A DNA stretch of 32,000 nucleotides from Sinorhizobium meliloti (GTDB lineage: Bacteria > Pseudomonadota > Alphaproteobacteria > Rhizobiales > Rhizobiaceae): the NCBI RefSeq assembly GCF_017876815.1, contig NZ_JAGIOS010000002.1, positions 120,001 through 152,000 of the forward strand. The letters are read 5' to 3'. The notes beneath the pieces were generated by a model that was given only the letters and a program-made list of their open reading frames with translations, did no database searches and had not been told where the DNA came from. Shown piece by piece: positions 19,124 to 32,000 of this stretch. Position 1 is the first letter of the stretch. Each line of letters starts with the position of its first letter. Position numbers and translations under genes: made by a program.

Positions 19124-19148
19124 GGAACAAGCTATTTTCCGCGGCGTT
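19124..19148 (+). promoter_or_regulatory. EcfG/RpoE2-type (general stress sigma factor) promoter motif upstream of yihY paralogue 1
   Basis: GGAAC (19124-19128), N16, CGTT (19145-19148). This is an exact match to the GGAAC-N16/17-CGTT consensus, 57 nt upstream of ATG 19205. Confidence 0.55.
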
Positions 19149-19204: not shown

Positions 19205-20197
19205 ATGGGTGCGAACGAAATCGAACTTGCCGAGAAGCTGGAGGCCGCGGAGCCGGGCAGGGGGCGTGCAGCCGATACGCCCGCTGATATCCCCGCCAAG
19301 GGGATGCGGGACGTCTTCTGGCGGGTGTTTTCCGAAATAGGCGAAGAGCGGGTCATGCTGATAGCCGCGGGTGTAAGCTTCTATCTTCTGCTGTCGCTCT
19401 TTCCTGCGCTGGGTGCCCTCGTCTCGATCTACGGGCTCGTCGCGGACCCATCCGAAATCGGCACCCATGTCGGTATCCTGCAGGCGCTTCTGCCGGCAGA
19501 CTCCTACGGGCTGATCATGGACCAGTTGGAGACCCTGACGACGCAGAAGCCGTCCACTCTCGGCATCGGTTTCTTCGTGAGCCTGTCGATCTCCCTGTGG
19601 TTGGCAGCCAACGGCATCGCCGCCCTCTTCGATGCGATGAACGTGGCCTATGGAGAAAGAGAAAAGAGAGGCTTTCTGTCGAGAACCCTCCTGTGCCTCG
19701 CGTTCACCTTCGCGGCACTCCTCTTCGCGGTCGCGCTGATCGCGGCGATCGGCGTCGTGCCAGCCGTACTGGCCTATGTGTGGGTCGACCGTTGGGTCGA
19801 GCTCGTGACCCGAGCGGCGAGATGGCCCGCGGTACTGCTCCTCGTCACCTTCGGCACCATCCTCATCTATCGTTTCGGGCCGAGCCGCGAGCGGGCGAAA
19901 CTGCGGTGGCTGAACTGGGGCGCGGTGTTCAGCACCTTGTTTTGGTTGGCCGCCTCATGGCTCTTTTCTTATTACCTGGAACATTTCGCCAACTACAACG
20001 CGACATACGGCGCTCTCGGCGCGCTCGCCGGTCTCATGACATGGGTGTGGATCTCGGTGATGATTCTCATCATCGGCGCACTCATCAATGCCGAACTCGA
20101 ACACCAGACGGCGGTCGATTCGACGACGGGCAAGCCGCTCCCGTTGGGCGAGCGCGGTGCTCACGTCGCCGACACCATCGGCAAGGCGGCCGACTGA
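19205..20197 (+). CDS. YihY/BrkB-family integral membrane protein (paralogue 1)
   Basis: 330 aa. Polytopic, with conserved blocks FP.L..LVSIYGL, YGPSRE..KLRW and FANYNATYGALGA. The N-terminal GRGRAAD.P..IPA.G block is shared with paralogue 2, which supports this start. Confidence 0.85.
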   Translation: MGANEIELAEKLEAAEPGRGRAADTPADIPAKGMRDVFWRVFSEIGEERVMLIAAGVSFYLLLSLFPALGALVSIYGLVADPSEIGTHVGILQALLPADSYGLIMDQLETLTTQKPSTLGIGFFVSLSISLWLAANGIAALFDAMNVAYGEREKRGFLSRTLLCLAFTFAALLFAVALIAAIGVVPAVLAYVWVDRWVELVTRAARWPAVLLLVTFGTILIYRFGPSRERAKLRWLNWGAVFSTLFWLAASWLFSYYLEHFANYNATYGALGALAGLMTWVWISVMILIIGALINAELEHQTAVDSTTGKPLPLGERGAHVADTIGKAAD

Positions 20198-20294: not shown

Positions 20295-20813
20295 ATGGCA
20301 GATCGTGACCTCTTGGGTCTGGCGGCCAGCGCGAAGATCGGCGGGCATCCGATCCATCCGATGCTCGTTCCCTTTCCGATCGCGCTTCTTGTCGCAACGT
20401 TCATATGTGACATCGTTTATCTTGCGAACGGAAATTCATTCTGGGCAGACGTGTCTATGTGGTCGCTGGGTGCAGCCATCGTGATGGCAGCCCTCGCTGC
20501 TCTCGCCGGACTGACGGATTTCCTCGGGAATGCCCGTATTCGAGCGATCAACGATGCCTGGAAGCACATGATCGGAAACATTGTCGTCGTACTCTTCGCG
20601 ATCGCCGGTTTTTGGCTGCGTTATGAGAACGGTTCCGTTGAGGCCGTCTGGCCCTGGGGCTTTCTACTGTCTCTCGTCACCGTCCTGCTGCTTCTCTACA
20701 CCGGCTGGAAAGGCGGGGAGCTCGTCTATCATCATCGGGTCGGCATGGACCCCGAGGCTGAGGACGGCGCTGCCACGCCGTCCATGACAAGGCACAGGAC
20801 GAAGCACATCTAA
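20295..20813 (+). CDS. DUF2231-family membrane protein (paralogue 1)
   Basis: The ORF track gives 20088..20813. I trimmed it to ATG 20295 (MADRDLLG...), which is preceded by TGGAGGA. It has the GGHPIHPMLVPFPIALL motif and four predicted TM helices. Confidence 0.75.
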   Translation: MADRDLLGLAASAKIGGHPIHPMLVPFPIALLVATFICDIVYLANGNSFWADVSMWSLGAAIVMAALAALAGLTDFLGNARIRAINDAWKHMIGNIVVVLFAIAGFWLRYENGSVEAVWPWGFLLSLVTVLLLLYTGWKGGELVYHHRVGMDPEAEDGAATPSMTRHRTKHI

Positions 20814-20870: not shown

Positions 20871-21496
20871 CTATTCGCTGCGGTCGTAGAAGAACTGGAT
20901 CCCAGGCGTGCCGTCCGTTTCGATGAACAGGCTCATGAAAGCGGGGACGGTTTCACTGCGCTTCCATTCCCTCTGCAGCCCGCAAAAGAGCTGGACGGCG
21001 CCGGCCTGCTCGACGCGACGCAACGCGGCGTCGTGCGCGGCAACCGACGTGCCGCCGACCGCATCCACCCGCACATAAACTTCATAGCCTTCCGCCAACG
21101 GATTGAATGCCGGGAAGGTCAGGCAAGCCTCGGTCCAGAGCGCCGTCATGATCAGCTTCTTGCGGCCGGGGTCGTCGACCGCCTTGCGGAATTCGACATC
21201 CTCCCAGCTGTTGATGCTGGTGCGGTGGTAAATCGGGTAGCCGTCCAGCGCTTTCGGAATATGCGGAACGGGCGGCTTGTTGAGCCCGGTCTGCACGTTG
21301 ACCGTGGAATGAACGACCGGCAAACCGTTTTGCGGTCGCCCGGTCCGGTGCGGAAGTTCCACTCTCCGCCAGGTAGAGACGGTGCGGGCGCGTCAGCCGT
21401 CCCAGCTCCGAAAAAGCCCATGTCCGTGGGATTGAAGGTGTCACCGCAAACATTGCCCGCAAAAGCTTTGCGATCTCCAACGTAGCGTCCTAACAA
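20871..21496 (-). pseudogene. Isochorismatase-family (YcaC-like) hydrolase remnant, frameshifted at the N terminus
   Basis: The C-terminal ~150 codons are intact in one frame (INSWEDVEFRKAV, KKLIMTALWTEACLTFPA, EVYV.VDAVGG). N-terminal pieces (TFNPTD, FRTGPG) are found only in other frames (ORFs 21152..21496 and 21082..21480). The DHQ catalytic-Asp block is not recognisable. The total span equals one YcaC-length gene. Confidence 0.5.
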
Positions 21497-21503
21497 TAGA
21501 ACG

Positions 21504-22011
21504 ATGAAAGACTTGAACGACCTCTATTACTTCGTCCAGGTGGTCGACCACGGCGGCTACGCCGCTGCCGTGCGCGCCAATGACATTCAGAAGTCGGAGC
21601 TCAGCCGGCGCATCCAGCAATTGGAAGAACGGCTGGGTGTGCGACTGCTAAACCGGTCTTCCCGTCGCTTTTCCGTGACCGAGATCGGACGCGAATATTA
21701 TGATCGCTGTGTCGCCATGCTGGTCGAGGCCGAGGCGGCCGACGAGATGATCGCGCAAGTCCGCTCCGAGCCGCGCGGCATCGTCCGCGTGAGTTGCCCG
21801 GTGGCGCTGATCAACTTCGCTGCCGACGATGATGGTTTGGCGCCAGGTCGAATCGGGCCAACTCGTTCACGTCCTGCCGGACTGGCGCCCACCCGCCGGC
21901 ATCGTCCATGCCGTTTTCCCTTCGCGCCTCGGACTACTGCCTTCAGTGCGGCCACTGCTTGATTTCCTGGCGGCGGAATGCGCCGAGGCGAGGAAGCGGG
22001 CTGTCGTCTAG
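21504..22011 (+). pseudogene. LysR-family regulator remnant with an internal deletion and frame change
   Basis: The HTH and linker are intact in ORF 21504..21962 up to GIVRVSCPVALINFA. The LysR C terminus (GQLVHVLPDW....AVFPSR..L.P.VRPLLDFL) appears in another frame (21829..22011). The span is only ~169 codons against ~300 for the family. Confidence 0.6.
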
Positions 22012-22077: not shown

Positions 22078-22578
22078 TTGGATCAACCACCAGTTCGACC
22101 GGACGGATTGCAGATCGAAGAGCATCGCGCTTTTCAGGAGTCTTTCTGGAAAGTAGAGCGCGTCGCATGGATTGTTTTTGGCCTGACGTTGCTTGCCGCC
22201 GTCCTGGGCGTTACGGGCTCGCGGGGCTGGCTTCAGAGACAAGCCGTGACGTTCGCCGGCGGCTCTGTCGATGTGCCGCGTTTCAGCCGCTGGGAGGCGT
22301 CCGACACGCTGAACGCGTCATTGGCCGGCGGCGGGAACGAACGTCGCCTGATCTTGTCGCCTGAATTCTTCAGGAGCTTTCAGGTGGAGGACATGGATCC
22401 GCCACCGATCGCCGCCGAAGCAGGCAATGAAGGGCTGGTATACCGCTTCCGGTCCGCTTCGCGACAGCCCCTTGTGCTGACTCTGCACCTTCGCGCCCAA
22501 AGTCCGGGTGTCGTTTCCTATCGAATAGGCATGGATGACGAGCCAGCGCAGGCAGTGCGAACGATCGTCTGGCCCTAG
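22078..22578 (+). CDS. Hypothetical single-pass membrane protein
   Basis: 166-aa ORF with a TTG start and GAGGT about 10 nt upstream. One TM helix (VAWIVFGLTLLAAVLGV). No family recognised. GC3 is lower than in neighbouring genes. It is followed by a terminator-like hairpin. Confidence 0.45.
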   Translation: MDQPPVRPDGLQIEEHRAFQESFWKVERVAWIVFGLTLLAAVLGVTGSRGWLQRQAVTFAGGSVDVPRFSRWEASDTLNASLAGGGNERRLILSPEFFRSFQVEDMDPPPIAAEAGNEGLVYRFRSASRQPLVLTLHLRAQSPGVVSYRIGMDDEPAQAVRTIVWP

Positions 22579-22634
22579 AGCGGGATGAGGAAAAGTGTGC
22601 GCGGTTTTCCGCCCGCATCCCGCTCTAACTTTTT
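22576..22634 (+). terminator. Terminator-like hairpin carrying the GGAAAAGTGTG...CGGTTTTCCG repeat core
   Basis: 12-bp perfect arms, TAGAGCGGGATG (22576-22587) and CATCCCGCTCTA (22616-22627). Inner pairing GGAAAA/TTTTCC. A T5 run follows at 22630-22634. The stop codon of the upstream ORF lies in the left arm. Confidence 0.5.
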
Positions 22635-22650
22635 GGAATCGGTCACGTTA

Positions 22651-22681
22651 ATGCTTTTAGGTCGACCCGACCTAAAAGCAT
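22651..22681. repeat. 14-bp perfect inverted repeat; second palindrome of a composite intergenic element
   Basis: ATGCTTTTAGGTCG (22651-22664), ACC, CGACCTAAAAGCAT (22668-22681). It ends 9 nt before the GGAG SD of the DUF421 gene. Confidence 0.6.
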
Positions 22682-22701
22682 CGTGATCTAGGAGATACGT
22701 C

Positions 22702-23142
22702 ATGGACTCCGTCGTTCGCGGTATTACGATCTATTTTATACTCCTTGCCGCGCTCCGGCTTTCCGGCCGGCGCACGGTTGCTCAGATGACGACCTTCGAC
22801 TTCGTGCTGCTGCTCATCATCGCGGAGACGACCCAGCAGGCCTTGCTTGGCGACGACTTCTCCATTGTCAACGCAACATTGCTCATCCTGACGCTCTTCG
22901 GCGTCGATATCGTTCTCTCCTACCTCAAGCAATGGTCGCCGAAGATCGCTCTGTTCCTCGACGGAACGGCGACGGTGCTCATCGCAGACGGCAAGGTCGA
23001 CGAACGTGCCTTGAAAAGAGCCCGGGTCAACATCGAGGACATACTTGTCGCCGCCCGGGAGCAGCAGGGCCTGGCTCGCCTCGACCAGATCAAATTCGCG
23101 GTTCTCGAGGCCGACGGGGGCATAAGCATCATACCGAGATGA
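22702..23142 (+). CDS. DUF421 (YetF-like) membrane protein
   Basis: 146 aa. N-terminal TM helices, G.R...Q.T.FD.V..L.I... motifs, and a C-terminal soluble domain (VLIADGKVDERALKRARVNIEDIL...R). SD GGAG. Confidence 0.75.
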   Translation: MDSVVRGITIYFILLAALRLSGRRTVAQMTTFDFVLLLIIAETTQQALLGDDFSIVNATLLILTLFGVDIVLSYLKQWSPKIALFLDGTATVLIADGKVDERALKRARVNIEDILVAAREQQGLARLDQIKFAVLEADGGISIIPR

Positions 23143-23573: not shown

Positions 23574-23598
23574 GGAACAAGCCAACGCTTAGCGTGTT
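23574..23598 (+). promoter_or_regulatory. EcfG/RpoE2-like promoter motif upstream of yihY paralogue 2
   Basis: GGAAC (23574-23578), N16, TGTT (23595-23598). It shares the extended -35 sequence GGAACAAGC with the motif at 19124. It lies 78 nt upstream of ATG 23676. Confidence 0.45.
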
Positions 23599-24670: not shown

Positions 24671-26224
24671 TTATTGCTGTTGCTCCGGTGATCCCTGTTC
24701 CGTAGCCCTCGGCAGAGTAGCGGGCGCGACATCGGTCTGCGGCGGCTCCGGAGGCGTGGTACCAGCTGCGGGAGGAGCGGCCCCTCCGGCTGTTCCTCCT
24801 GTCTCACCCGCCGGTGGGCTGGCTTCGCTGGTGACCGGGCTATCCCTCTGACCGTCCGTACCGACAGGGCCCGGCGTCACCCTGCCGTCGGCTCCGGCGA
24901 CGCGCCAGACGGTGTTGCCGGCGTCGTCGGCAACGAGCAGCGCCCCGGTCCCGTCGATCGCTACGCCGACCGGACGACCGCGTGCCTGATCGCCTTCGAT
25001 GAAGCCGGTCACGATGTCCTGAGCCTTTCCGGCCGGCCGGCCGTTTTCGAAGGGGACATAGACGACCTTGTAACCGTTGAAGCTGCTGCGGTTCCAGCTC
25101 CCGTGCTCGCCTATGAAGGCGCCGTTGGCGAAGGGCTCCGGCAAGGCGGAGCCGTTGGAGAAGACCAGACCCAGGGCGGCGACGTGGCTGGAAAGGGCGT
25201 AGTCCGGCGGGATCGCTTTCTCGACCATGTCCGGCCGCGGCGGATGGACCCGCTCGTCCACATGGGCGCCGAAATAGCTCCATGGCCAGCCGTAGAAGGC
25301 GCCTTCCTGCACCGAAGTCATGTAGTCCGGCACGAGATTCGGCCCCAGTTCGTCACGCTCGTTGACGACCGTCCAGAGCACGCCGGTCTCGGGATGGAAG
25401 ATCAGCCCGTTCGGATTGCGCAGGCCGGACGCGAAGACGCGGGCCGCACCCGTTTCCCGATCTACCTGCCAGATTGCAGCACGGCCTTTCTCGGCCTCGA
25501 GCCCGCGCTCGGCTACGTTCGAGTTGGAGCCGACGGAGGCATAGAGGTAGCGCCCGTCGGGGCTGAGGGCCAGGTCCTTGGTCCAGTGATGGTTGATCGG
25601 GCCACCCGGAAGCGGCGTAAGAACCCGCGGCTCGCCGGTGATCTCCGCCTGCCCGAGCTGGTAGGGGTAGGCAAGGATTGCATCGGCTGCCGCCACGTAA
25701 AGCGTTCCGTCGTGCCACGCAACTCCGAAAGGAGAATGGAGCCCTGTCAGCAGGTCGTGGCGTTCGTCCACCGTTCCGTCGCGATCGGTGTCGCGGAGCA
25801 GCGTGATCAGGTTGCTTTCCTTTTCGGGTCCGGCACCACCGCCATGGGCCATGGACATGACCCAACCTCGGATCATGTCCTTCGGACGCTCTATCGGCTT
25901 GCCCGAGGGTTCGCGCGATTGAACGACGAGAACGTCGCCGTTCGGCAGCGTATGGACGGTCCTCGGATTGGCAAGGTCCTTCGCGTAGGCGGCAATGACG
26001 AGATTGTCGGGAACGCTCGGTGTCTTGCCGTCCTGCCAGCCGACGACCTCGGCGACTTTCATGTCCGGCAGGAGCTCCGATGTCGGTTCCGGCAGGACCG
26101 GATCGGGGCCGATCTGCTGCGAGACATCGAAATCCGCGCCGTCATCGCTGCAGCCTGCGAGCGCCAGGAGGAGAAGGCCGGTTCCGATGAAGAATCTTGC
26201 ACCCAAGAAGGCAGAGCTATTCAT
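24671..26224 (-). CDS. PQQ-dependent sugar (sorbosone/glucose) dehydrogenase family lipoprotein with a Pro/Thr/Gly-rich C-terminal tail
   Basis: 517 aa with lipobox LLALAG|C. Beta-propeller family blocks are present (HSPFG.AW.DG.LYVA, INHHWTKDLA, GSNSNV, GLRNPNGL.FHP.TG.LW..VNERDELG...VPDY, GAFYGWPW). Its start overlaps the upstream DUF2231 stop by 8 nt. Confidence 0.8.
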   Translation of the reverse strand: MNSSAFLGARFFIGTGLLLLALAGCSDDGADFDVSQQIGPDPVLPEPTSELLPDMKVAEVVGWQDGKTPSVPDNLVIAAYAKDLANPRTVHTLPNGDVLVVQSREPSGKPIERPKDMIRGWVMSMAHGGGAGPEKESNLITLLRDTDRDGTVDERHDLLTGLHSPFGVAWHDGTLYVAAADAILAYPYQLGQAEITGEPRVLTPLPGGPINHHWTKDLALSPDGRYLYASVGSNSNVAERGLEAEKGRAAIWQVDRETGAARVFASGLRNPNGLIFHPETGVLWTVVNERDELGPNLVPDYMTSVQEGAFYGWPWSYFGAHVDERVHPPRPDMVEKAIPPDYALSSHVAALGLVFSNGSALPEPFANGAFIGEHGSWNRSSFNGYKVVYVPFENGRPAGKAQDIVTGFIEGDQARGRPVGVAIDGTGALLVADDAGNTVWRVAGADGRVTPGPVGTDGQRDSPVTSEASPPAGETGGTAGGAAPPAAGTTPPEPPQTDVAPATLPRATEQGSPEQQQ

Positions 26225-26669
26225 AACCGCTCACTCCGGATTGCCTGCGATAGAGGGTGGCGCGGCCAAGCAAAGCGAAGAGGATCGTCAGAAGCACCGT
26301 CGCCGCGGAGAGGATCAACCCGTAGGGCACCACAGCCGTCCAGCCATCGGCGGCATGGACGAGGTTGTTGACGAAGGCGAGGCCGAAGACGAGGATGTAG
26401 CCGACGACATGGAGCCAAACCGCCCCTTGCCTGCGTCGCTCCCTTCGAAACAGGAACTCCAACACACTGGCTAGACCGGCGATCACGCCGGCGATGATAC
26501 CGGCAAAGAGCAGCCAGGCGGAGAAGTTCTGCCACATGAGATGTCCCGTCTGCCAGAAGGCGATATCAGTCAGAAGGGCGAGCGTAAAACAGACGACTGG
26601 AAACGGCACGAGCAACGAATGGACCGGGGTGGTGACGGTCGCGGCAGTCGATGCGGAATTCAGGCTCAT
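26217..26669 (-). CDS. DUF2231-family membrane protein (paralogue 2)
   Basis: 150 aa with the VHSLLVPFPVVCF motif and four predicted TM helices. SD AGGAGG lies 5 nt from ATG 26669. Confidence 0.75.
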   Translation of the reverse strand: MSLNSASTAATVTTPVHSLLVPFPVVCFTLALLTDIAFWQTGHLMWQNFSAWLLFAGIIAGVIAGLASVLEFLFRRERRRQGAVWLHVVGYILVFGLAFVNNLVHAADGWTAVVPYGLILSAATVLLTILFALLGRATLYRRQSGVSGYE

Positions 26670-26697
26670 CGGTGCCTCCTGTTCGGTCGACGGTTGA

Positions 26698-26722
26698 AAC
26701 CTCGGGCCTGCCTATTTGTTCC
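26698..26722 (-). promoter_or_regulatory. EcfG/RpoE2-like promoter motif upstream of the DUF2231-dehydrogenase operon
   Basis: The minus strand reads GGAAC (26722-26718), N16, GGTT (26701-26698). The GTT is at canonical spacing. It lies about 28 nt upstream of ATG 26669. Confidence 0.4.
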
Positions 26723-26779
26723 GTGAGCGGTCCGCGTCGGGTGGTTCGGCCGGCTTCGCAACCACAGGAGGTGCGGATT

Positions 26780-26806
26780 GGAACCATGAAGCACCCCAAA
26801 CAGTTT
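26780..26806 (+). promoter_or_regulatory. Weak EcfG-like motif upstream of the oxidase operon
   Basis: GGAAC (26780-26784), N17, AGTT (26802-26805). One position off consensus in the -10 element and at the longer spacing. It lies 113 nt upstream of ATG 26919. Confidence 0.25.
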
Positions 26807-26918
26807 CGCCTTGCGACACGGTCTTTCGATGCCGTGTTTCGACCGGCCGCCTGCGCCGGCGACCTTTCTGAAACCTGACCGTCGCGGTCTTGGTCAGCCG
26901 CTCGGAGGAGGGGGAGTG

Positions 26919-27500
26919 ATGGGGCCGTTGGCGACGCATATGGCAGTGCATATCCTGCTGATGAACCTCGCCGCGCCCCTGGCTGCATTCGCCGTGACGC
27001 GGGTTCGGCTGCAGCGGCGGGAAATCGCCGGGTGGGCCCTGGCGCTTGCGACATTTGCGCAGATCGCCGCCCTCTGGGCCTGGCATGCGCCGCCTTCTCT
27101 CAACCGGGCACTGGAATTTCCCACGGTTCATTTGCTGATGAATGCCAGCCTGTTCCTGACCGCATTCCTATTCTGGCGGGTGGTCCTGCGTCTTCATGGT
27201 CAACGCTCCTGGCAACCGATCGTCGCCCTTCTGATAACCAGCAAGCTCTATTGTCTTCTCGCCGTGCTCTTCGTCTTCGCGCCGAGAGCGCTCTACCCCG
27301 CTTTCGCTGCATCCCACGCGGCGCATGCGACCGGAGCCGTGAACGCCACTTTGGCCGATCAGCAGCTCGCGGGGCTTATCATGCTGGTCGCCTGTCCGGT
27401 GACCTATGTTCTCGCAGGGATCGTGATTGCTGCGCGCTGGCTTCTGACGATGGAGAAAGACGAGGCCGGATCCAGAACAGGTGCAGCGGCGTGGACCTGA
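26919..27500 (+). CDS. Cytochrome c oxidase assembly factor, caa3-type CtaG-like membrane protein
   Basis: The ORF track gives 26811..27500. I trimmed it to ATG 26919, which is preceded by GGAGGAGGGGGA. N-terminal HMAVHILLMNLAAPL motif and a polytopic profile. It is shorter than Bacillus CtaG, so the assignment is tentative. Confidence 0.55.
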   Translation: MGPLATHMAVHILLMNLAAPLAAFAVTRVRLQRREIAGWALALATFAQIAALWAWHAPPSLNRALEFPTVHLLMNASLFLTAFLFWRVVLRLHGQRSWQPIVALLITSKLYCLLAVLFVFAPRALYPAFAASHAAHATGAVNATLADQQLAGLIMLVACPVTYVLAGIVIAARWLLTMEKDEAGSRTGAAAWT

Positions 27501-28615
27501 GAAACCTGCACTGGACGGCCGTTGCGAAAATCGTCGGGCTCGGCGCCGTGCTGCTCGTGGCCGCGGGCGTCGTGTTCGTCTGGTCCGGGGTCTACAACGT
27601 CGCGGCCTCCAAGGACCATCTGCGGATTACGACCTGGATCCTGACGTTGATCCGCGAACGATCGATCGCCAACCGAAGCTTTACGATCGAGGTTCCGCCG
27701 CTCGATGACGACGGCATGATCCGACTTGGGGCATCCCATTTCGAAGGTGCGTGCGTAGCGTGCCACAACCGCCCCGGCGAAGAGATAAACCCGATCGTCA
27801 GCGGCATGCTGCCCCCGCCTCCGGATCTGATGGACATCGGCAAGCGCCGCCCGCCGGAGGAGATCTTCTGGATCGTCAAGCACGGCCTCAAATATACCGG
27901 CATGCCCGCATGGCCGAATACGCGGCGCGACGACGAGGTCTGGGCCGTCACGGCATTCCTCGCGAGCCTGCCCGCAACGGCAGGCAATTATCGCGAACTG
28001 GCAGGCCTCACGCGCAGCCAGGCCAGTAGCGATGAGCGATCCGTGGGCGGCAGCGCATTGACCGCCTGCGGGCGCTGCCATGAACGCGAAGGCACAGGCA
28101 CGAACGGCGACCGTATCCCGCGGCTCGCGGGGTTACCGGAAGCCTATCTCCTGCGCAGCCTCCAGGAATATGCGAAGGGGACCCGCCCGAGCGGTGCCAT
28201 GGAGCCGGTCGCCGACCTTCTGTCGGAGGACGCCATGCGGGAGCTGGCAGCGTATTATTCCGCGCTTCGGCCAACCGCCGGAAATCAATCGGCGCCTCCT
28301 GATCCCGAGCAACTCAGGCGTGGCGAAGCCATTGCCAATCGCGGCATCGCGCATCAGGGCGTACCGGCCTGCCTGAGCTGCCATTCCGGACGTCAATCGC
28401 AGCAGTTTCCGGTGCTCGCCGGCCAGCATGCCGAGTACATACAGGAGCAGATACGGCTCTGGCGGCGCGGAGGGCGGATCGGGACCCCTTATGGGAGGAT
28501 CATGACGGCGGTTGCCGGCGCACTGGACGAGGCGCAGATCGAAGACGTCGCCGCCTATCTGGGTTCACTGCCTCCGGGAAGCGCCACGGCTCCGATGACG
28601 GAGGTGAACCGATGA
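27491..28615 (+). CDS. Membrane-anchored trihaem c-type cytochrome (N-terminal monohaem domain plus c4-like dihaem module)
   Basis: The ORF track gives 27032..28615. I trimmed it to GTG 27491 (MDLRNLHW...), with AGGTG 8 nt upstream, overlapping ctaG by 10 nt. One TM helix, then three CxxCH motifs (CVACH, CGRCH, CLSCH). The c4-type motif PVLAGQHAEYI is present. Confidence 0.8.
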   Translation: MDLRNLHWTAVAKIVGLGAVLLVAAGVVFVWSGVYNVAASKDHLRITTWILTLIRERSIANRSFTIEVPPLDDDGMIRLGASHFEGACVACHNRPGEEINPIVSGMLPPPPDLMDIGKRRPPEEIFWIVKHGLKYTGMPAWPNTRRDDEVWAVTAFLASLPATAGNYRELAGLTRSQASSDERSVGGSALTACGRCHEREGTGTNGDRIPRLAGLPEAYLLRSLQEYAKGTRPSGAMEPVADLLSEDAMRELAAYYSALRPTAGNQSAPPDPEQLRRGEAIANRGIAHQGVPACLSCHSGRQSQQFPVLAGQHAEYIQEQIRLWRRGGRIGTPYGRIMTAVAGALDEAQIEDVAAYLGSLPPGSATAPMTEVNR

Positions 28616-29595
28616 GGCTCGCCCGATATTTCGCGGCGGCGAGCGCTCTCGCGCTGCAGGGCTGCGCCGGACTGCAGTCCGCCCTCGATCCTTCCGGCGC
28701 GGAAGCCGAGCGCATCGGCACGCTCAGTTGGCTGCTGGTCCTCTTCTCGACCGCCATTCTCGTCGCGGTCTGCCTGATCACGGCGGTCGCGCTTTTCGGC
28801 GGTGAGCGCTGGCGTGCCCGCATCGCGGGCGAAAGGATAGTCATCGGGGGCGGGCTCGTTTTCCCGATCCTGGCTCTCAGCGTCCTGCTGATTTACGGCT
28901 TCTACCTTATGTCACCTGGCACCACCGAGGCCCGCTCGCAGGGCGCATTGCGCATCGAGGTCGTGGGCGAGCGCTGGTGGTGGCGGGTGACCTATGTGGA
29001 CGAGGCCGGACGCCGCATCGAGAGCGCCAACGAAATCCGGCTGCCTGTCGGGCGGCCGGTGGAATTGGAACTGACATCGGCAGACGTTATTCACAGCTTC
29101 TGGGTGCCGCGGCTCGCCGGAAAGCTCGACATGATTCCCGGCCATACCAACACGCTGACGCTTCAAGCGACGAAGGCCGGTATCAGTCGCGGCCAATGTG
29201 CGGAGTATTGCGGCGGCCCGCATGCCTTCATGTCCTTTTACGTGATCGCCATGCCGGAAGACCAGTTTTCGTCCTGGCTCGCAGGCGAAGCCGGCGACGC
29301 CTCGGCTGCGAAGCCGGATCAGGCCGCAGGGCAGGCGCTTTTCCTCTCCTCCGGCTGCGCCGCATGCCACCGGGTCCGCGGCACGGATGCCCGGGGTACG
29401 ATCGGCCCCGACCTCACGCATGTGGGCAGCCGGCACTCGCTTGCCGCCGCGACGCTCGAAAACGACGTCGCCGCCTTCGTCCGCTGGATCCGCGACGGCC
29501 AGCACGTGAAGCCGGAAAATCTGATGCCGCCATTCGAAATCTTCACCGACGACGAATTGCGGCAGCTCGCCGCCTATCTGGACCAGTTGAGGTGA
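28612..29595 (+). CDS. coxB: Cytochrome c oxidase subunit II with a fused C-terminal cytochrome c domain (caa3-like)
   Basis: CuA ligands HSFWVP and CAEYCGGPHAFM. C-terminal CAACH haem c motif. ATGA start/stop overlap with the upstream cytochrome gene. Confidence 0.9.
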   Translation: MRLARYFAAASALALQGCAGLQSALDPSGAEAERIGTLSWLLVLFSTAILVAVCLITAVALFGGERWRARIAGERIVIGGGLVFPILALSVLLIYGFYLMSPGTTEARSQGALRIEVVGERWWWRVTYVDEAGRRIESANEIRLPVGRPVELELTSADVIHSFWVPRLAGKLDMIPGHTNTLTLQATKAGISRGQCAEYCGGPHAFMSFYVIAMPEDQFSSWLAGEAGDASAAKPDQAAGQALFLSSGCAACHRVRGTDARGTIGPDLTHVGSRHSLAAATLENDVAAFVRWIRDGQHVKPENLMPPFEIFTDDELRQLAAYLDQLR

Positions 29596-29598
29596 CCT

Positions 29599-30672
29599 AT
29601 GCTTGACTTCGCCGGCCTTGGACTTTGGCTGAATCTCGCGATTTTCGCGGGGGCGGCCGTGGCAGTCTGGATGGCAGGAGTCAAAATCACTGGTTATGCC
29701 AATGCGATCAGCGAGAAGACGGGAGTAGGCCAAGCCTTCATTGGCGTCGTGCTTCTCGGCGGCATCACTTCCCTGCCGGAGCTGGCGGTAGGCGTGACCT
29801 CGTCGCTCAGCGGTGACGCCAGTCTCGCGGTCAACAGCATCCTCGGCGGCATCGCCATGCAGGTGGCGATCCTCGCCCTTGCCGACATGCTGATCGGCCG
29901 CCGGGCACTGACCTCGGTCATTCCCGACCCGGTCGTCATGCTGCAGGGCGGATTCAAAATCCTTCTCCTGTCGATCGTCGCCGCCTCGATCGTGGTGGGC
30001 GACGTGCCGGTGCTTTTCTCGGGCCTGTGGATGTGGCTGCTTGCAGCGGTCACGGGCTTCGGCATGTGGGTCTTGTCACGGACGCAGCGCGACAGGCCCT
30101 GGATAGCGAATGACGAGGAGGTCACGCCGGAGAAGGAGGAAGAGAGGGCGCGGAAGGAGGCCGAGGACAGCAAGAAGAAATCGCTGCGTGAGGTGGGCTG
30201 GGCGACTGCGGGCTGCGGCGCCGTCATCATCGTCGCAGGCTATCTGCTGTCGCGTTCGGGAGACGCGATCGCCGAAGCGACCGGACTCGGCCAGAGCTTC
30301 ATCGGTGCGGTCCTCGTGGCGATTGCCACGTCGCTGCCGGAAGTCAGCACGGTGTTCAGCGCCACGCGTGCCGGCCTCTATACCATGGCCATGTCGGACA
30401 TCTTCGGCACGAACCTCATAGATCTGTCCCTTCTTTTCATCATCGATGTCACCGGAGGTGCCGACGCGGTGATGAACGGCGCCGGGCGCTTCGAGGCGTT
30501 TGCAGCGCTGATCGCGATCACGGTCACGGCGATCTTCTTCATCGGACTGGTCGAACGGCGGGACCGGACAATCCTCAGGATGGGTTACGACTCCTTTGCG
30601 GTCCTCAGCGTTTACCTGGCGGGGCTGGTCGTCCTCTATTTCCTGCGCGACACTGGCGGTGGAGGCGGATGA
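29599..30672 (+). CDS. CaCA-superfamily (Na+/Ca2+ exchanger / YrbG-like) cation antiporter
   Basis: 357 aa with a 5+5 TM layout. Two alpha-repeat signatures, GGITSLPEL and IATSLPEV, are separated by a charged loop (EEVTPEKEEERARKEAEDSKKK). It starts 3 nt after the coxB stop, with GAGG as SD. Its stop overlaps the ctaD start (ATGATG). Confidence 0.8.
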   Translation: MLDFAGLGLWLNLAIFAGAAVAVWMAGVKITGYANAISEKTGVGQAFIGVVLLGGITSLPELAVGVTSSLSGDASLAVNSILGGIAMQVAILALADMLIGRRALTSVIPDPVVMLQGGFKILLLSIVAASIVVGDVPVLFSGLWMWLLAAVTGFGMWVLSRTQRDRPWIANDEEVTPEKEEERARKEAEDSKKKSLREVGWATAGCGAVIIVAGYLLSRSGDAIAEATGLGQSFIGAVLVAIATSLPEVSTVFSATRAGLYTMAMSDIFGTNLIDLSLLFIIDVTGGADAVMNGAGRFEAFAALIAITVTAIFFIGLVERRDRTILRMGYDSFAVLSVYLAGLVVLYFLRDTGGGGG

Positions 30673-32000
30673 TGGAACTGCCAAATCCCGATCCCCGGCC
30701 CGAAGGCGAGGTCCGCGAACTGGAGCGCATCTGGGCGACGCCGCGCGGTTGGCGGCTGGTGACGGCTGTCAACAATACGGTGATCGGTCTTCTCTATCTC
30801 GGCGTCGCGTTTCTCTTCTTCCTGATGGCCGGTCTGCTGGCCGTCGTGATGCGCACGCAGCTCGCCCTCGGCGACAATCGCCTCGTCGACCAGGACCTCT
30901 ACAATCAGATGTTCACGGTCCATGGCACGACGATGATGTTCCTCTTTGCGGTGCCGGCGGTCGAGGCGCTCGGCGTCATGCTGCTGCCGCAGATGCTGGC
31001 GGCGCGCGACTTGCCCTTTCCGCGCCTCAGCGCCTTCGCCATCTGGGCCTACGTGGTCGGCGGGCTGGTCTTCTTCTCGACCATCTTCTACGACCTCGCG
31101 CCGAAAGGCGGCTGGTTCATGTATCCGCCGCTGACGCTCATGGAGTATTCGCCGGGTGACAACGCCGATTTCTGGCTGCTCGGCATCGGCTTCATCGAGA
31201 TTTCGGCGATCGCCGGGGCAGTGGAGATCGTCGTTGGCGCGCTGAGGACGCGGCCGCCGGGCATGTCGCTCGCCAAGATGCCGATCTTCGCCTGGACGAT
31301 GCTGATCTTCGCCAGCATGATCATGTTCGCCTTCCCGGCGGTGATCCTGGCGACGATGATGCTGGAGATCGAGCGGGCGTTCGGATGGCCCTTCTTCACA
31401 GCCGCACTCGGGGGAGATCCGCTGCTCTGGCAGCATCTCTTCTGGTTCTTCGGGCACCCGGAAGTCTACATCATCTTCCTTCCGGCCGCGGGCCTCGTCT
31501 CGATGATGGTACCGACGATGGCCCGCACGCCGCTCGTCGGCTATCACCTGATCGTCGTCGCCCTGATCGGCACCGGGTTTTTCAGCTTCGGGCTCTGGGT
31601 GCACCACATGTTCACGACAGGCATTCCGGCGCTGAGCCTCGCCTTCTTCTCCGCCGCCAGCATGGCGGTCGCCGTTCCCTCGGGCATCCAGGTCTTTTCC
31701 TGGATCGCGACCATCGCCGCGGGACGGGAGCGCTTCCGGATCACGACCGCATCGCTGTTCATTCTCGGCTTCCTGTTCATTTTCACCCTTGGAGGGCTTA
31801 CCGGCGTCATGGTGGCCATGGTGCCCTTCGACCATCAGGTACACGACACCTATTTCGTCGTTGCACATTTCCACTACGTGCTGATCGGCGGTTTCGTATT
31901 TCCGCTGTTTGCGGCGATCTATTACTGGATGCCGCTCTTCAGCCGCCGGATGCTCTCGGAACGGCTGGGCCGGTGGGTGTTCTGGCTGATCTTCATCGGC
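30669..32000 (+). CDS. ctaD: Cytochrome c oxidase subunit I (A-type haem-copper oxidase), 3' end outside the window
   Basis: It is absent from the ORF track because the frame has no stop before nt 32000. My manual translation reads MMELPNPDP... and contains TVHGTTMMF (haem a His), WFFGHPEVYIIFLP (CuB His and cross-linked Tyr), WVHHMF and VAHFHYV. Confidence 0.9.
   Translation, partial: MMELPNPDPRPEGEVRELERIWATPRGWRLVTAVNNTVIGLLYLGVAFLFFLMAGLLAVVMRTQLALGDNRLVDQDLYNQMFTVHGTTMMFLFAVPAVEALGVMLLPQMLAARDLPFPRLSAFAIWAYVVGGLVFFSTIFYDLAPKGGWFMYPPLTLMEYSPGDNADFWLLGIGFIEISAIAGAVEIVVGALRTRPPGMSLAKMPIFAWTMLIFASMIMFAFPAVILATMMLEIERAFGWPFFTAALGGDPLLWQHLFWFFGHPEVYIIFLPAAGLVSMMVPTMARTPLVGYHLIVVALIGTGFFSFGLWVHHMFTTGIPALSLAFFSAASMAVAVPSGIQVFSWIATIAAGRERFRITTASLFILGFLFIFTLGGLTGVMVAMVPFDHQVHDTYFVVAHFHYVLIGGFVFPLFAAIYYWMPLFSRRMLSERLGRWVFWLIFIG

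Follow-up and report, generated by a model that had tools for sequence, protein, structure and literature searches.

Chains in which a periplasmic dehydrogenase with pyrroloquinoline quinone (PQQ) and Ca2+ reduces a c-type cytochrome, which then serves an oxidase and thereby bypasses the bc1 complex, are exemplified by MxaFI with cytochrome cL and by ExaA with cytochrome c550. The same electron logic is proposed here for a locus of Sinorhizobium meliloti, found at positions 24671-32000 of a 32,000-nucleotide (nt) stretch of DNA (hereafter, the window; assembly GCF_017876815.1, contig NZ_JAGIOS010000002.1, positions 120,001-152,000). The locus consists of two divergent units: genes for a DUF2231 membrane protein and a GSDH-family dehydrogenase on one side, and a cytochrome c oxidase operon on the other. 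An earlier sequence-only reading had presented them as a self-contained route from a periplasmic substrate to oxygen. Co-regulation of the units by the stress sigma factor RpoE2, together with their recurrent and rearrangement-tolerant linkage in other genomes, indicates that they are functionally associated, and a shared electron path between them is plausible.

The PQQ propellers of MxaFI and ExaA have eight blades (PF01011), and their cytochrome partners are soluble and come from the same operons; the S. meliloti protein is instead a lipoprotein of the six-bladed GSDH/AA12 type accompanied by DUF2231, for which electron transfer is a proposal. Its Pfam family and fold are common to the Acinetobacter calcoaceticus soluble glucose dehydrogenase (sGDH), Escherichia coli YliI/Asd, the fungal AA12 pyranose dehydrogenases and the membrane-bound L-sorbosone dehydrogenase, the last being the source of the family name; unlike these, it is a lipoprotein strictly coupled to a DUF2231 gene. 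Fungal AA12 members bear a fused cytochrome domain, and a cytochrome is thereby shown to be a natural acceptor. The cytochrome encoded in the S. meliloti operon, SMb21367, resembles cytochrome c4 and CcoP/FixP of the cbb3 oxidases; like CcoP it is membrane-anchored and multi-haem and is encoded with its own oxidase. It differs from them in its three haems, a distinct juxtamembrane motif and an A-type instead of a C-type oxidase. On the oxidase side, the caa3 oxidase of Thermus thermophilus (2YEV) is also of A-type; it has a fusion of subunits I and III, and its subunit II, like that of S. meliloti, is fused to cytochrome c. The alignment with 2YEV covers CoxI residues 21-589 alone, the tail of the S. 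meliloti protein being marginally COX3-like, and we know of no tri-haem partner or CaCA exchanger in the Thermus system; the GHPEV motif of the S. meliloti CoxI is a further difference.

The nearest catalogued relative is the "COX operon type a" of Degli Esposti et al. (2014, PMC4013037). The type is characterised there by a COX1-COX3 fusion and, as in the S. meliloti unit, tri-haem c cytochromes, and its listed carriers include S. meliloti 1021; COX2-cytochrome c fusions are also described there, and subtype a-II is associated with PQQ dehydrogenases of the MxaF-like, eight-bladed kind. In the parts of the paper covered here there is no description of a DUF2231-GSDH pair, of a CaCA gene within the operon or of RpoE2/EcfG control. 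Judged by its gene content, the oxidase unit is this catalogued, caa3-like operon and is not new, so that the novelty ascribed to the combination by the sequence-only reading does not extend to its oxidase part. Our literature searches found neither published work on the DUF2231-dehydrogenase pair nor a biochemical study of the type-a oxidase in rhizobia; the single paper found to name DUF2231 seems unrelated, judged by its title and abstract.

Gene content of the locus and its control region

The locus is 100% identical to the megaplasmid pSymB of many S. meliloti strains; its counterpart in strain 1021 is NC_003078.1 1027640-1034969 (99.9% identity), and it corresponds to pSymB genes SMb21364 to about SMb21370. 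Locus tags SMb21364, SMb21365, SMb21366, SMb21367 (cycA) and SMb21369 were taken from published array supplementary tables, and the tag SMb21368 for the CoxII-cytochrome c (CoxII-c) gene was assigned by numbering. All seven genes named in the sequence-only reading were recovered at their coordinates with the open reading frame (ORF) listing, Pfam and NCBIfam, in agreement with the PGAP annotation of an identical pSymB record. In window coordinates, the features are as follows.

24671-26224, minus strand: SMb21364, lipoprotein of the GSDH / sorbosone-dehydrogenase family, 517 amino acids (aa); Pfam GSDH, lipobox LLLALAG-C25
26217-26669, minus strand: SMb21365, DUF2231 membrane protein, 150 aa, four transmembrane (TM) helices; Pfam DUF2231, 102.7 bits
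26670-26918: intergenic region, 249 nt
26698-26722, minus strand: RpoE2/EcfG-type promoter motif GGAAC-N17-GTT, GGAACAAATAGGCAGGCCCGAGGTT, upstream of the DUF2231 gene
26780-26805, plus strand: RpoE2/EcfG-type promoter motif GGAAC-N18-GTT, GGAACCATGAAGCACCCCAAACAGTT, upstream of the oxidase operon
26919-27500, plus strand: SMb21366, oxidase assembly membrane protein of the Caa3_CtaG type, 193 aa; PF09678, 66.8 bits
27491-28615, plus strand: SMb21367 (cycA), membrane-anchored tri-haem cytochrome c; Pfam match, one N-terminal TM helix, three CXXCH
28612-29595, plus strand: SMb21368, CoxII with C-terminal mono-haem cytochrome c; Pfam COX2 and Cytochrom_C
29599-30672, plus strand: SMb21369, cation exchanger of the CaCA family, 357 aa; Pfam Na_Ca_ex
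30669 or 30672 to 32000, plus strand: CoxI, N-terminal 443 aa within the window; Pfam COX1, 435 bits

The end of the DUF2231 gene overlaps the start of the dehydrogenase gene by 8 nt. The tight junctions previously noted in the oxidase unit (a 10-nt overlap, an ATGA overlap and a 3-nt gap) were confirmed, as was the overlap of the CaCA stop with CoxI, which amounts to 4 nt with a start at 30669 or 1 nt with the start at 30672 picked by PGAP. Rfam gave no match across 18.5-32 kb, and a scan of the region for sigma-70 promoters and terminators returned nothing useful.

The proposal that one control region serves both units was borne out: the 249-nt spacer holds two divergent RpoE2/EcfG-type motifs, which are conserved in relatives. 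In comparison with the RpoE2 promoter form GGAAC-N16-17-CGTT, for which mapped RpoE2 promoters served as reference, both motifs have perfect GGAAC and GTT elements, and the base preceding GTT is G or A, not C. In an alignment with five related Sinorhizobium/Ensifer loci, both stand out as conserved islands in an otherwise divergent spacer, the conserved block of the plus-strand motif being TGGAACCAT...CAGTT. Across the wider set of loci, such a motif was located within 250 nt upstream of the CtaG gene in 30 of 66 (about 45%) and within 250 nt upstream of the DUF2231 gene in 14 of 61, compared in both cases with a background of 0.018 per comparable stretch.

Published arrays show induction of genes of both units upon rpoE2 overexpression, with log fold changes (logFC) of 0.99 for SMb21364, 2.83 for SMb21365, 1.73 for SMb21366, 0.94 for SMb21367 and 0.83 for SMb21369 (PMC6180224). 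Moreover, SMb21365 and SMb21366 are rpoE2-dependent in an independent table (PMC3616915 Table S18). The co-expression of the two units, suggested earlier from their arrangement, is thus supported, and the objection that they might be expressed under different conditions is countered. Transcription starts at the coordinates expected downstream of the motifs were not found among the supplementary rows listed. A paper discussing this control was not found: a search on EcfG and cytochrome c oxidase gave nothing relevant, and publications on the stress regulons of B. diazoefficiens, R. etli and E. aridi make no mention of these genes. The S. meliloti transcriptome papers found discuss solely the cta, cyo and fix genes. 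Neither SMb21364-21370 nor Bradyrhizobium bll4479-4481 had a match in paper main texts, the data being found solely in supplementary tables.

Linkage of the two units in other genomes

Two censuses were conducted, with flanks of up to 10 kb and detection of genes by tblastn with S. meliloti queries. The forward census covered the 80 loci nearest to the S. meliloti tri-haem cytochrome, of at least 573 confirmed, in species-representative genomes, a sample in which the second gene order of the oxidase operon (see below) is under-represented. The reverse census, centred on the dehydrogenase, took the best 80 of 469 metagenome matches and comprised 83 loci with orthologues of at least 67% identity.

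In the forward census, just six of the 80 oxidase loci carried the DUF2231-dehydrogenase pair within 10 kb. They include loci of the Sinorhizobium/Ensifer clade with the same divergent layout (L003-L006) and an uncultured alphaproteobacterium (L032) in which the pair lies directly downstream of the CoxI/III gene and in the same direction. The oxidase must therefore be regarded as independent of the pair. From the other side, genes of the oxidase unit flanked the dehydrogenase gene in 20 of the 51 loci with a flank of 3 kb or more on one side. When the loci were dereplicated at 90% identity of the dehydrogenase, some match remained in 19 of the 43 clusters, and about 13 of the 43 had both CoxII-c and a CoxI/III fusion; against a generous chance expectation of 2% this adjacency is about 15-fold enriched (binomial P about 2e-12).

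The layouts of pair and oxidase number at least seven, with divergent, co-directional and convergent orientations and both gene orders of the operon. The pair is divergent from a CoxII-c-first operon in L117, L130 and L160, precedes such an operon co-directionally in L104, L111, L119, L122, L148 and L162, and converges with the oxidase genes in L150 and L158; in L128 it is divergent, with a gap, from a CtaG-first operon, and L107, L143 and L153 are mixed. In L123, a 354-aa homologue of the tri-haem cytochrome, DUF2231 and the dehydrogenase are encoded in one direction, and in L097 a mono-haem relative of the tri-haem cytochrome lies 1.4 kb downstream of the dehydrogenase gene.

The expectation of linkage in other genomes was consequently upheld in part: the association recurs in about 13 of the 43 dereplicated dehydrogenase loci, but the gene order varies and the share of oxidase loci with the pair is small. 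Designation of the locus as "self-contained" could not be maintained, given the six of 80 oxidase loci and the fact that most pairs have no oxidase nearby. Confinement of the pairing to S. meliloti and its close relatives, as suggested by the forward census, was ruled out by the reverse one. The tri-haem cytochrome was likewise rejected as an obligate link, because four linked clusters do without it.

In Ensifer sp. LCM 4579 (L083) the pair and the type-a operon are located on different contigs. Some 6 kb separate the pair from genes for COX1, COX3 and COX4_pro, and it adjoins a gene for an 883-aa eight-bladed PQQ dehydrogenase.

Proteins of the oxidase operon and of the DUF2231-dehydrogenase pair

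CoxI matched PF00115 with 435 bits as cut by the window end and with 482 bits at full length, and the cut protein scored 584 bits with TIGR02891 (CtaD_CoxA). Its translation carries the GHPEVY and HHMF motifs of an A-type haem-copper oxidase subunit I, and the GHPEV motif is taken by us to indicate the A1-type. The gene passes the end of the window; the ORF of strain 1021 encodes 841 aa, and about 70 related loci have a similarly extended protein. Alignments with A-type CoxI structures, that of the Thermus I+III fusion among them, extend over the N-terminal 590 residues; the C-terminal 286 aa have five predicted TM helices and a weak COX3 match (E=0.011, 16 bits, below the Pfam cut-off), with no match of this tail in the PDB. 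CoxII was identified with PF00116, its TIGR02866 score of 147.5 bits lying marginally under the cut-off of 147.7, and a cytochrome c domain with one CXXCH is fused to it (PF00034, residues 238-326). The CuA motif H...CAEYCGGPHAFM (H...C-x-E-x-C-x3-H-x2-M) was read from the translation, and this centre on CoxII identifies the enzyme as a cytochrome c oxidase and not a quinol oxidase.

The core of CtaG, tri-haem cytochrome, CoxII-c and CoxI/III is kept across 70 loci in Alpha-, Beta- and Gammaproteobacteria, the carriers including Nitrosospira and Nitrosovibrio (Betaproteobacteria) and Woeseiaceae (Gammaproteobacteria). CtaG heads the operon in the layout seen in S. meliloti, and a second order (CoxII-c, CoxI/III, CtaG, tri-haem cytochrome) was found in Chelativorans, Stutzerimonas and others. 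Directly 3' of the CoxI/III gene and outside the window there is a 123-aa membrane ORF (17532-17903 of L002) with conserved cysteines and no Pfam match; it is kept in at least 27 related loci and possibly encodes a subunit resembling CoxIV. The CoxI/III gene of S. meliloti strain ml59 is split near residue 624 by a transposase gene of the IS701 family (ISRm31; L001, 16917-18131); the oxidase is thus naturally inactivated, and dispensable, in at least this strain.

In the tri-haem cytochrome SMb21367, a TM helix and a conserved juxtamembrane motif are combined with one mono-haem and one di-haem domain. The latter is c4-like, residues 184-360 aligning with structures of cytochrome c4 at E about 1e-22, and NCBIfam models point to a weak similarity of the protein to CcoP. 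It has more than 1,300 homologues, all three CXXCH motifs are invariant in their alignment, and the gene adjoins CoxII/CoxI in most of the 80 loci of the forward census. From these features, the protein is best viewed as a putative dedicated, membrane-anchored entry subunit. A separate observation concerns five Methylocystis loci (L042, L048, L056, L063, L067), where a tri-haem homologue accompanies a CoxII-c-like gene with no CoxI within 10 kb and with a GMC-family oxidoreductase gene upstream; this pairing may represent a different use of the cytochrome pair.

The CaCA exchanger SMb21369 matches PF01699 in two stretches and has two TSLPE motifs, its scores with the NCBIfam equivalog models falling below their cut-offs. 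A CaCA gene is inserted between CoxII-c and CoxI/III in 21 of the 70 oxidase loci, from many genera (among others, Sinorhizobium, Mesorhizobium, Devosia, Stella and Nitrosospira), and is close by in eight more. It is a genuine yet optional member of the operon. One idea is that the exchanger would deliver Ca2+ to periplasmic enzymes.

The dehydrogenase SMb21364 scored 53 bits with PF07995 (GSDH; cut-off 25), and PF22807 (TrAA12) is a precomputed match on its homologues. Its profile matches TrAA12, CcPDH and YliI, with weak similarity to solved PQQ enzymes (E 4e-5 to 1e-6). In Foldseek the best matches were all PQQ propellers of the AA12 and sGDH types with E about 1e-12, obtained from a poor AlphaFold model (predicted local distance difference test, pLDDT, 51) and at less than 20% sequence identity. 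The lipobox cysteine C25, invariant in 14 orthologues, marks a bacterial lipoprotein, and the C-terminal tail is of low complexity and rich in Pro and Ala. Orthologues are abundant and 70-85% identical across genera and orders, which argues for a specific conserved role. The cofactor could be made by the host, a point raised along with the original proposal: PQQ synthesis genes SMb20204 (pqqA) and SMb20207 are on pSymB (PMC8343143), the replicon of the dehydrogenase gene. Furthermore, the propeller matches the N-terminal domain model of the PVC-type haem-binding CxxCH family, with 48 bits against a cut-off of 122; in those proteins, a propeller would be joined to a c-type haem motif within a single polypeptide. 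A second GSDH-family paralogue of 49% identity is present on S. meliloti pSymA (L169), with no annotated DUF2231 gene beside it.

In each of the 67 loci whose sequence extends far enough, DUF2231 is encoded directly upstream of the dehydrogenase. Among its residues, H17 and H87 are invariant and M45, H105 and D108 nearly so; in the predicted topology the former two are near the cytoplasmic face and the latter three near the periplasmic face. The AlphaFold2 model is a four-helix bundle (pLDDT 79.6) for which Foldseek returned no significant neighbour (best E 0.6), the weak matches including cytochrome b561, Dcytb and FdnI. A role in binding haem b, or another redox role, can be considered as a lead only.

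Proposed electron route between the units, and the surrounding regulon

We tentatively prefer to read the locus as an alternative oxidase branch induced by stress, to which a co-regulated periplasmic dehydrogenase would add an optional input; the most likely route for its electrons is to enter directly at the c-type cytochromes. RpoE2 would fire the two back-to-back promoters and thereby switch on both units together under starvation or stress. The tri-haem cytochrome would act as a CcoP-like entry subunit of the type-a oxidase, and electrons drawn by the dehydrogenase from a periplasmic, aldose-like substrate would reach it and/or the cytochrome c domain of CoxII, with DUF2231 as membrane partner of the dehydrogenase. 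The oxidase would also be fed by bc1, with no dependence on the dehydrogenase. For the electrons of the dehydrogenase itself, such a path would bypass bc1; this stronger claim of the sequence-only reading is not supported in the form given there. A more ambitious version of this arrangement appears doubtful to us: in it, a stand-alone, stress-induced, bc1-independent chain would be made up of the DUF2231-dehydrogenase pair together with the tri-haem cytochrome and the type-a oxidase. DUF2231 would then belong to a novel class of membrane redox partners, possibly with haem b held by the invariant His pair, and the CaCA exchanger would supply Ca2+ for the PQQ enzyme. If true, it would enable starving alphaproteobacteria to gain energy from periplasmic sugars.

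Several observations weigh against direct coupling of the units. Neither SMb21368 nor the CoxI gene was found among the rpoE2-induced rows listed (PMC6180224). Four of the six oxidase loci with the pair come from one clade, and the reverse census is built on metagenome contigs of unknown taxonomy. About 70% of the dehydrogenase pairs have no oxidase within reach, as in Inquilinus, Pseudorhizobium, R. leguminosarum, Sulfitobacter and Paracoccus, and the four linked clusters that lack the tri-haem cytochrome belong here too. Cytochrome c4 is a carrier from bc1 to oxidases, and the c4-like domain of SMb21367 fits such an ordinary carrier as well. DUF2231, the sole invariant partner of the dehydrogenase and given no role in the sequence-only reading, could pass electrons to quinone. 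With weak similarity to solved PQQ enzymes and a poor model, PQQ use is assigned to the dehydrogenase at the level of its family.

If DUF2231 were a membrane cytochrome b or a quinone-reducing anchor, electrons would flow to ubiquinone and then by the ordinary route through bc1, or through a quinol oxidase, to this or any other oxidase; bc1 would not be bypassed, and the tri-haem cytochrome would not be contacted directly. The constancy of DUF2231 upstream of the dehydrogenase, with cytochromes and oxidase as optional neighbours, is consistent with such wiring, and so are the four-helix bundle with its invariant cytoplasmic and near-invariant periplasmic residues (H17 and H87; M45 and H105), the faint structural resemblance to cytochrome b561, Dcytb and FdnI, and the Ensifer sp. 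LCM 4579 pair, which is near COX1, COX3, COX4_pro and a separate PQQ dehydrogenase gene and not near the type-a operon. However, the structural neighbours of DUF2231 are not significant and a haem or quinone motif is not established, and quinone wiring alone leaves the excess of caa3-type oxidase genes and tri-haem homologues beside the pair unexplained; we regard it as rather unlikely. Alternatively, the units might be neighbours in a regulon that exchange no electrons at all, the oxidase being a bc1-fed starvation or stress oxidase and the pair serving on its own for protection or scavenging in the periplasm. Such a relation would suit the further RpoE2-type motifs (19124 and 23574), each of which precedes a YihY gene, and the rpoE2 induction of SMb21361, SMb21362 and SMb21378 (see below), as well as the majority of oxidase loci without the pair and of pairs without the oxidase. 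In Sulfitobacter and Paracoccus, moreover, the pair is situated among genes for PRC-barrel, DUF2934 and extracytoplasmic function (ECF) sigma-factor proteins, which are typical company in stress regulons. Nevertheless, members of a regulon are normally scattered over the genome, whereas here the adjacency exceeds expectation many-fold, survives rearrangement and holds with both operon gene orders, and the arrangement in L123 resembles a single operon, which makes mere co-regulation unlikely in our opinion. It is highly improbable that the propeller is no PQQ dehydrogenase and provides no electron input, being for instance a lactonase or a binding protein of like fold. The weak similarity to solved enzymes, a sub-threshold match to SGL/gluconolactonase and the paraoxonase and strictosidine-synthase folds among the Foldseek results would agree with that, but the GSDH match is above the Pfam cut-off and is joined by the TrAA12 family matches, the best structural matches are all PQQ enzymes, and linkage of the gene to cytochrome and oxidase genes recurs.

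With the stress-induced oxidase branch as the preferred reading, the link to the stress response, drawn from the S. meliloti arrays and from the motif in about 45% of alphaproteobacterial loci, gives the type-a oxidase a physiological context: it would conserve energy in cells that are not growing, whether these are in soil or inside the plant. For the widespread and conserved DUF2231-dehydrogenase pair, linkage to a cytochrome c oxidase and tri-haem cytochromes offers a testable hypothesis on the function of the domain. Were the coupling direct, the route from quinoprotein via cytochrome c to oxidase would be extended from eight-bladed alcohol to six-bladed sugar dehydrogenases.

The region from about 19 kb to 32 kb of the window looks like an RpoE2-controlled island. 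A YihY/BrkB gene (annotated start 23676, to 24662) is preceded, at a distance of about 78 nt from its start, by an RpoE2-type motif (23574-23598), and is convergent with the dehydrogenase gene, 8 nt separating their ends; YihY genes are also near the DUF2231-dehydrogenase pair in L086, L110 and L162. SMb21361 (166 aa, no Pfam match) and SMb21362 (DUF421/YetF), at 22078-23142, are rpoE2-induced with logFC of 1.91 and 1.03, respectively, and SMb21378 is induced as well. A second module with an RpoE2-type motif (19124-19148, plus strand) comprises a YihY/BrkB paralogue (19205-20197) and a DUF2231 paralogue (20295-20813) of 31% identity, which retains H17 and H87 but not H105; this module indicates that DUF2231 pairs with YihY too. 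Between the two DUF2231 modules are an isochorismatase-family gene (20871-21362, minus strand) and a 152-aa ORF (21504-21962) that matches solely the LysR helix-turn-helix domain and is possibly a truncated regulator.

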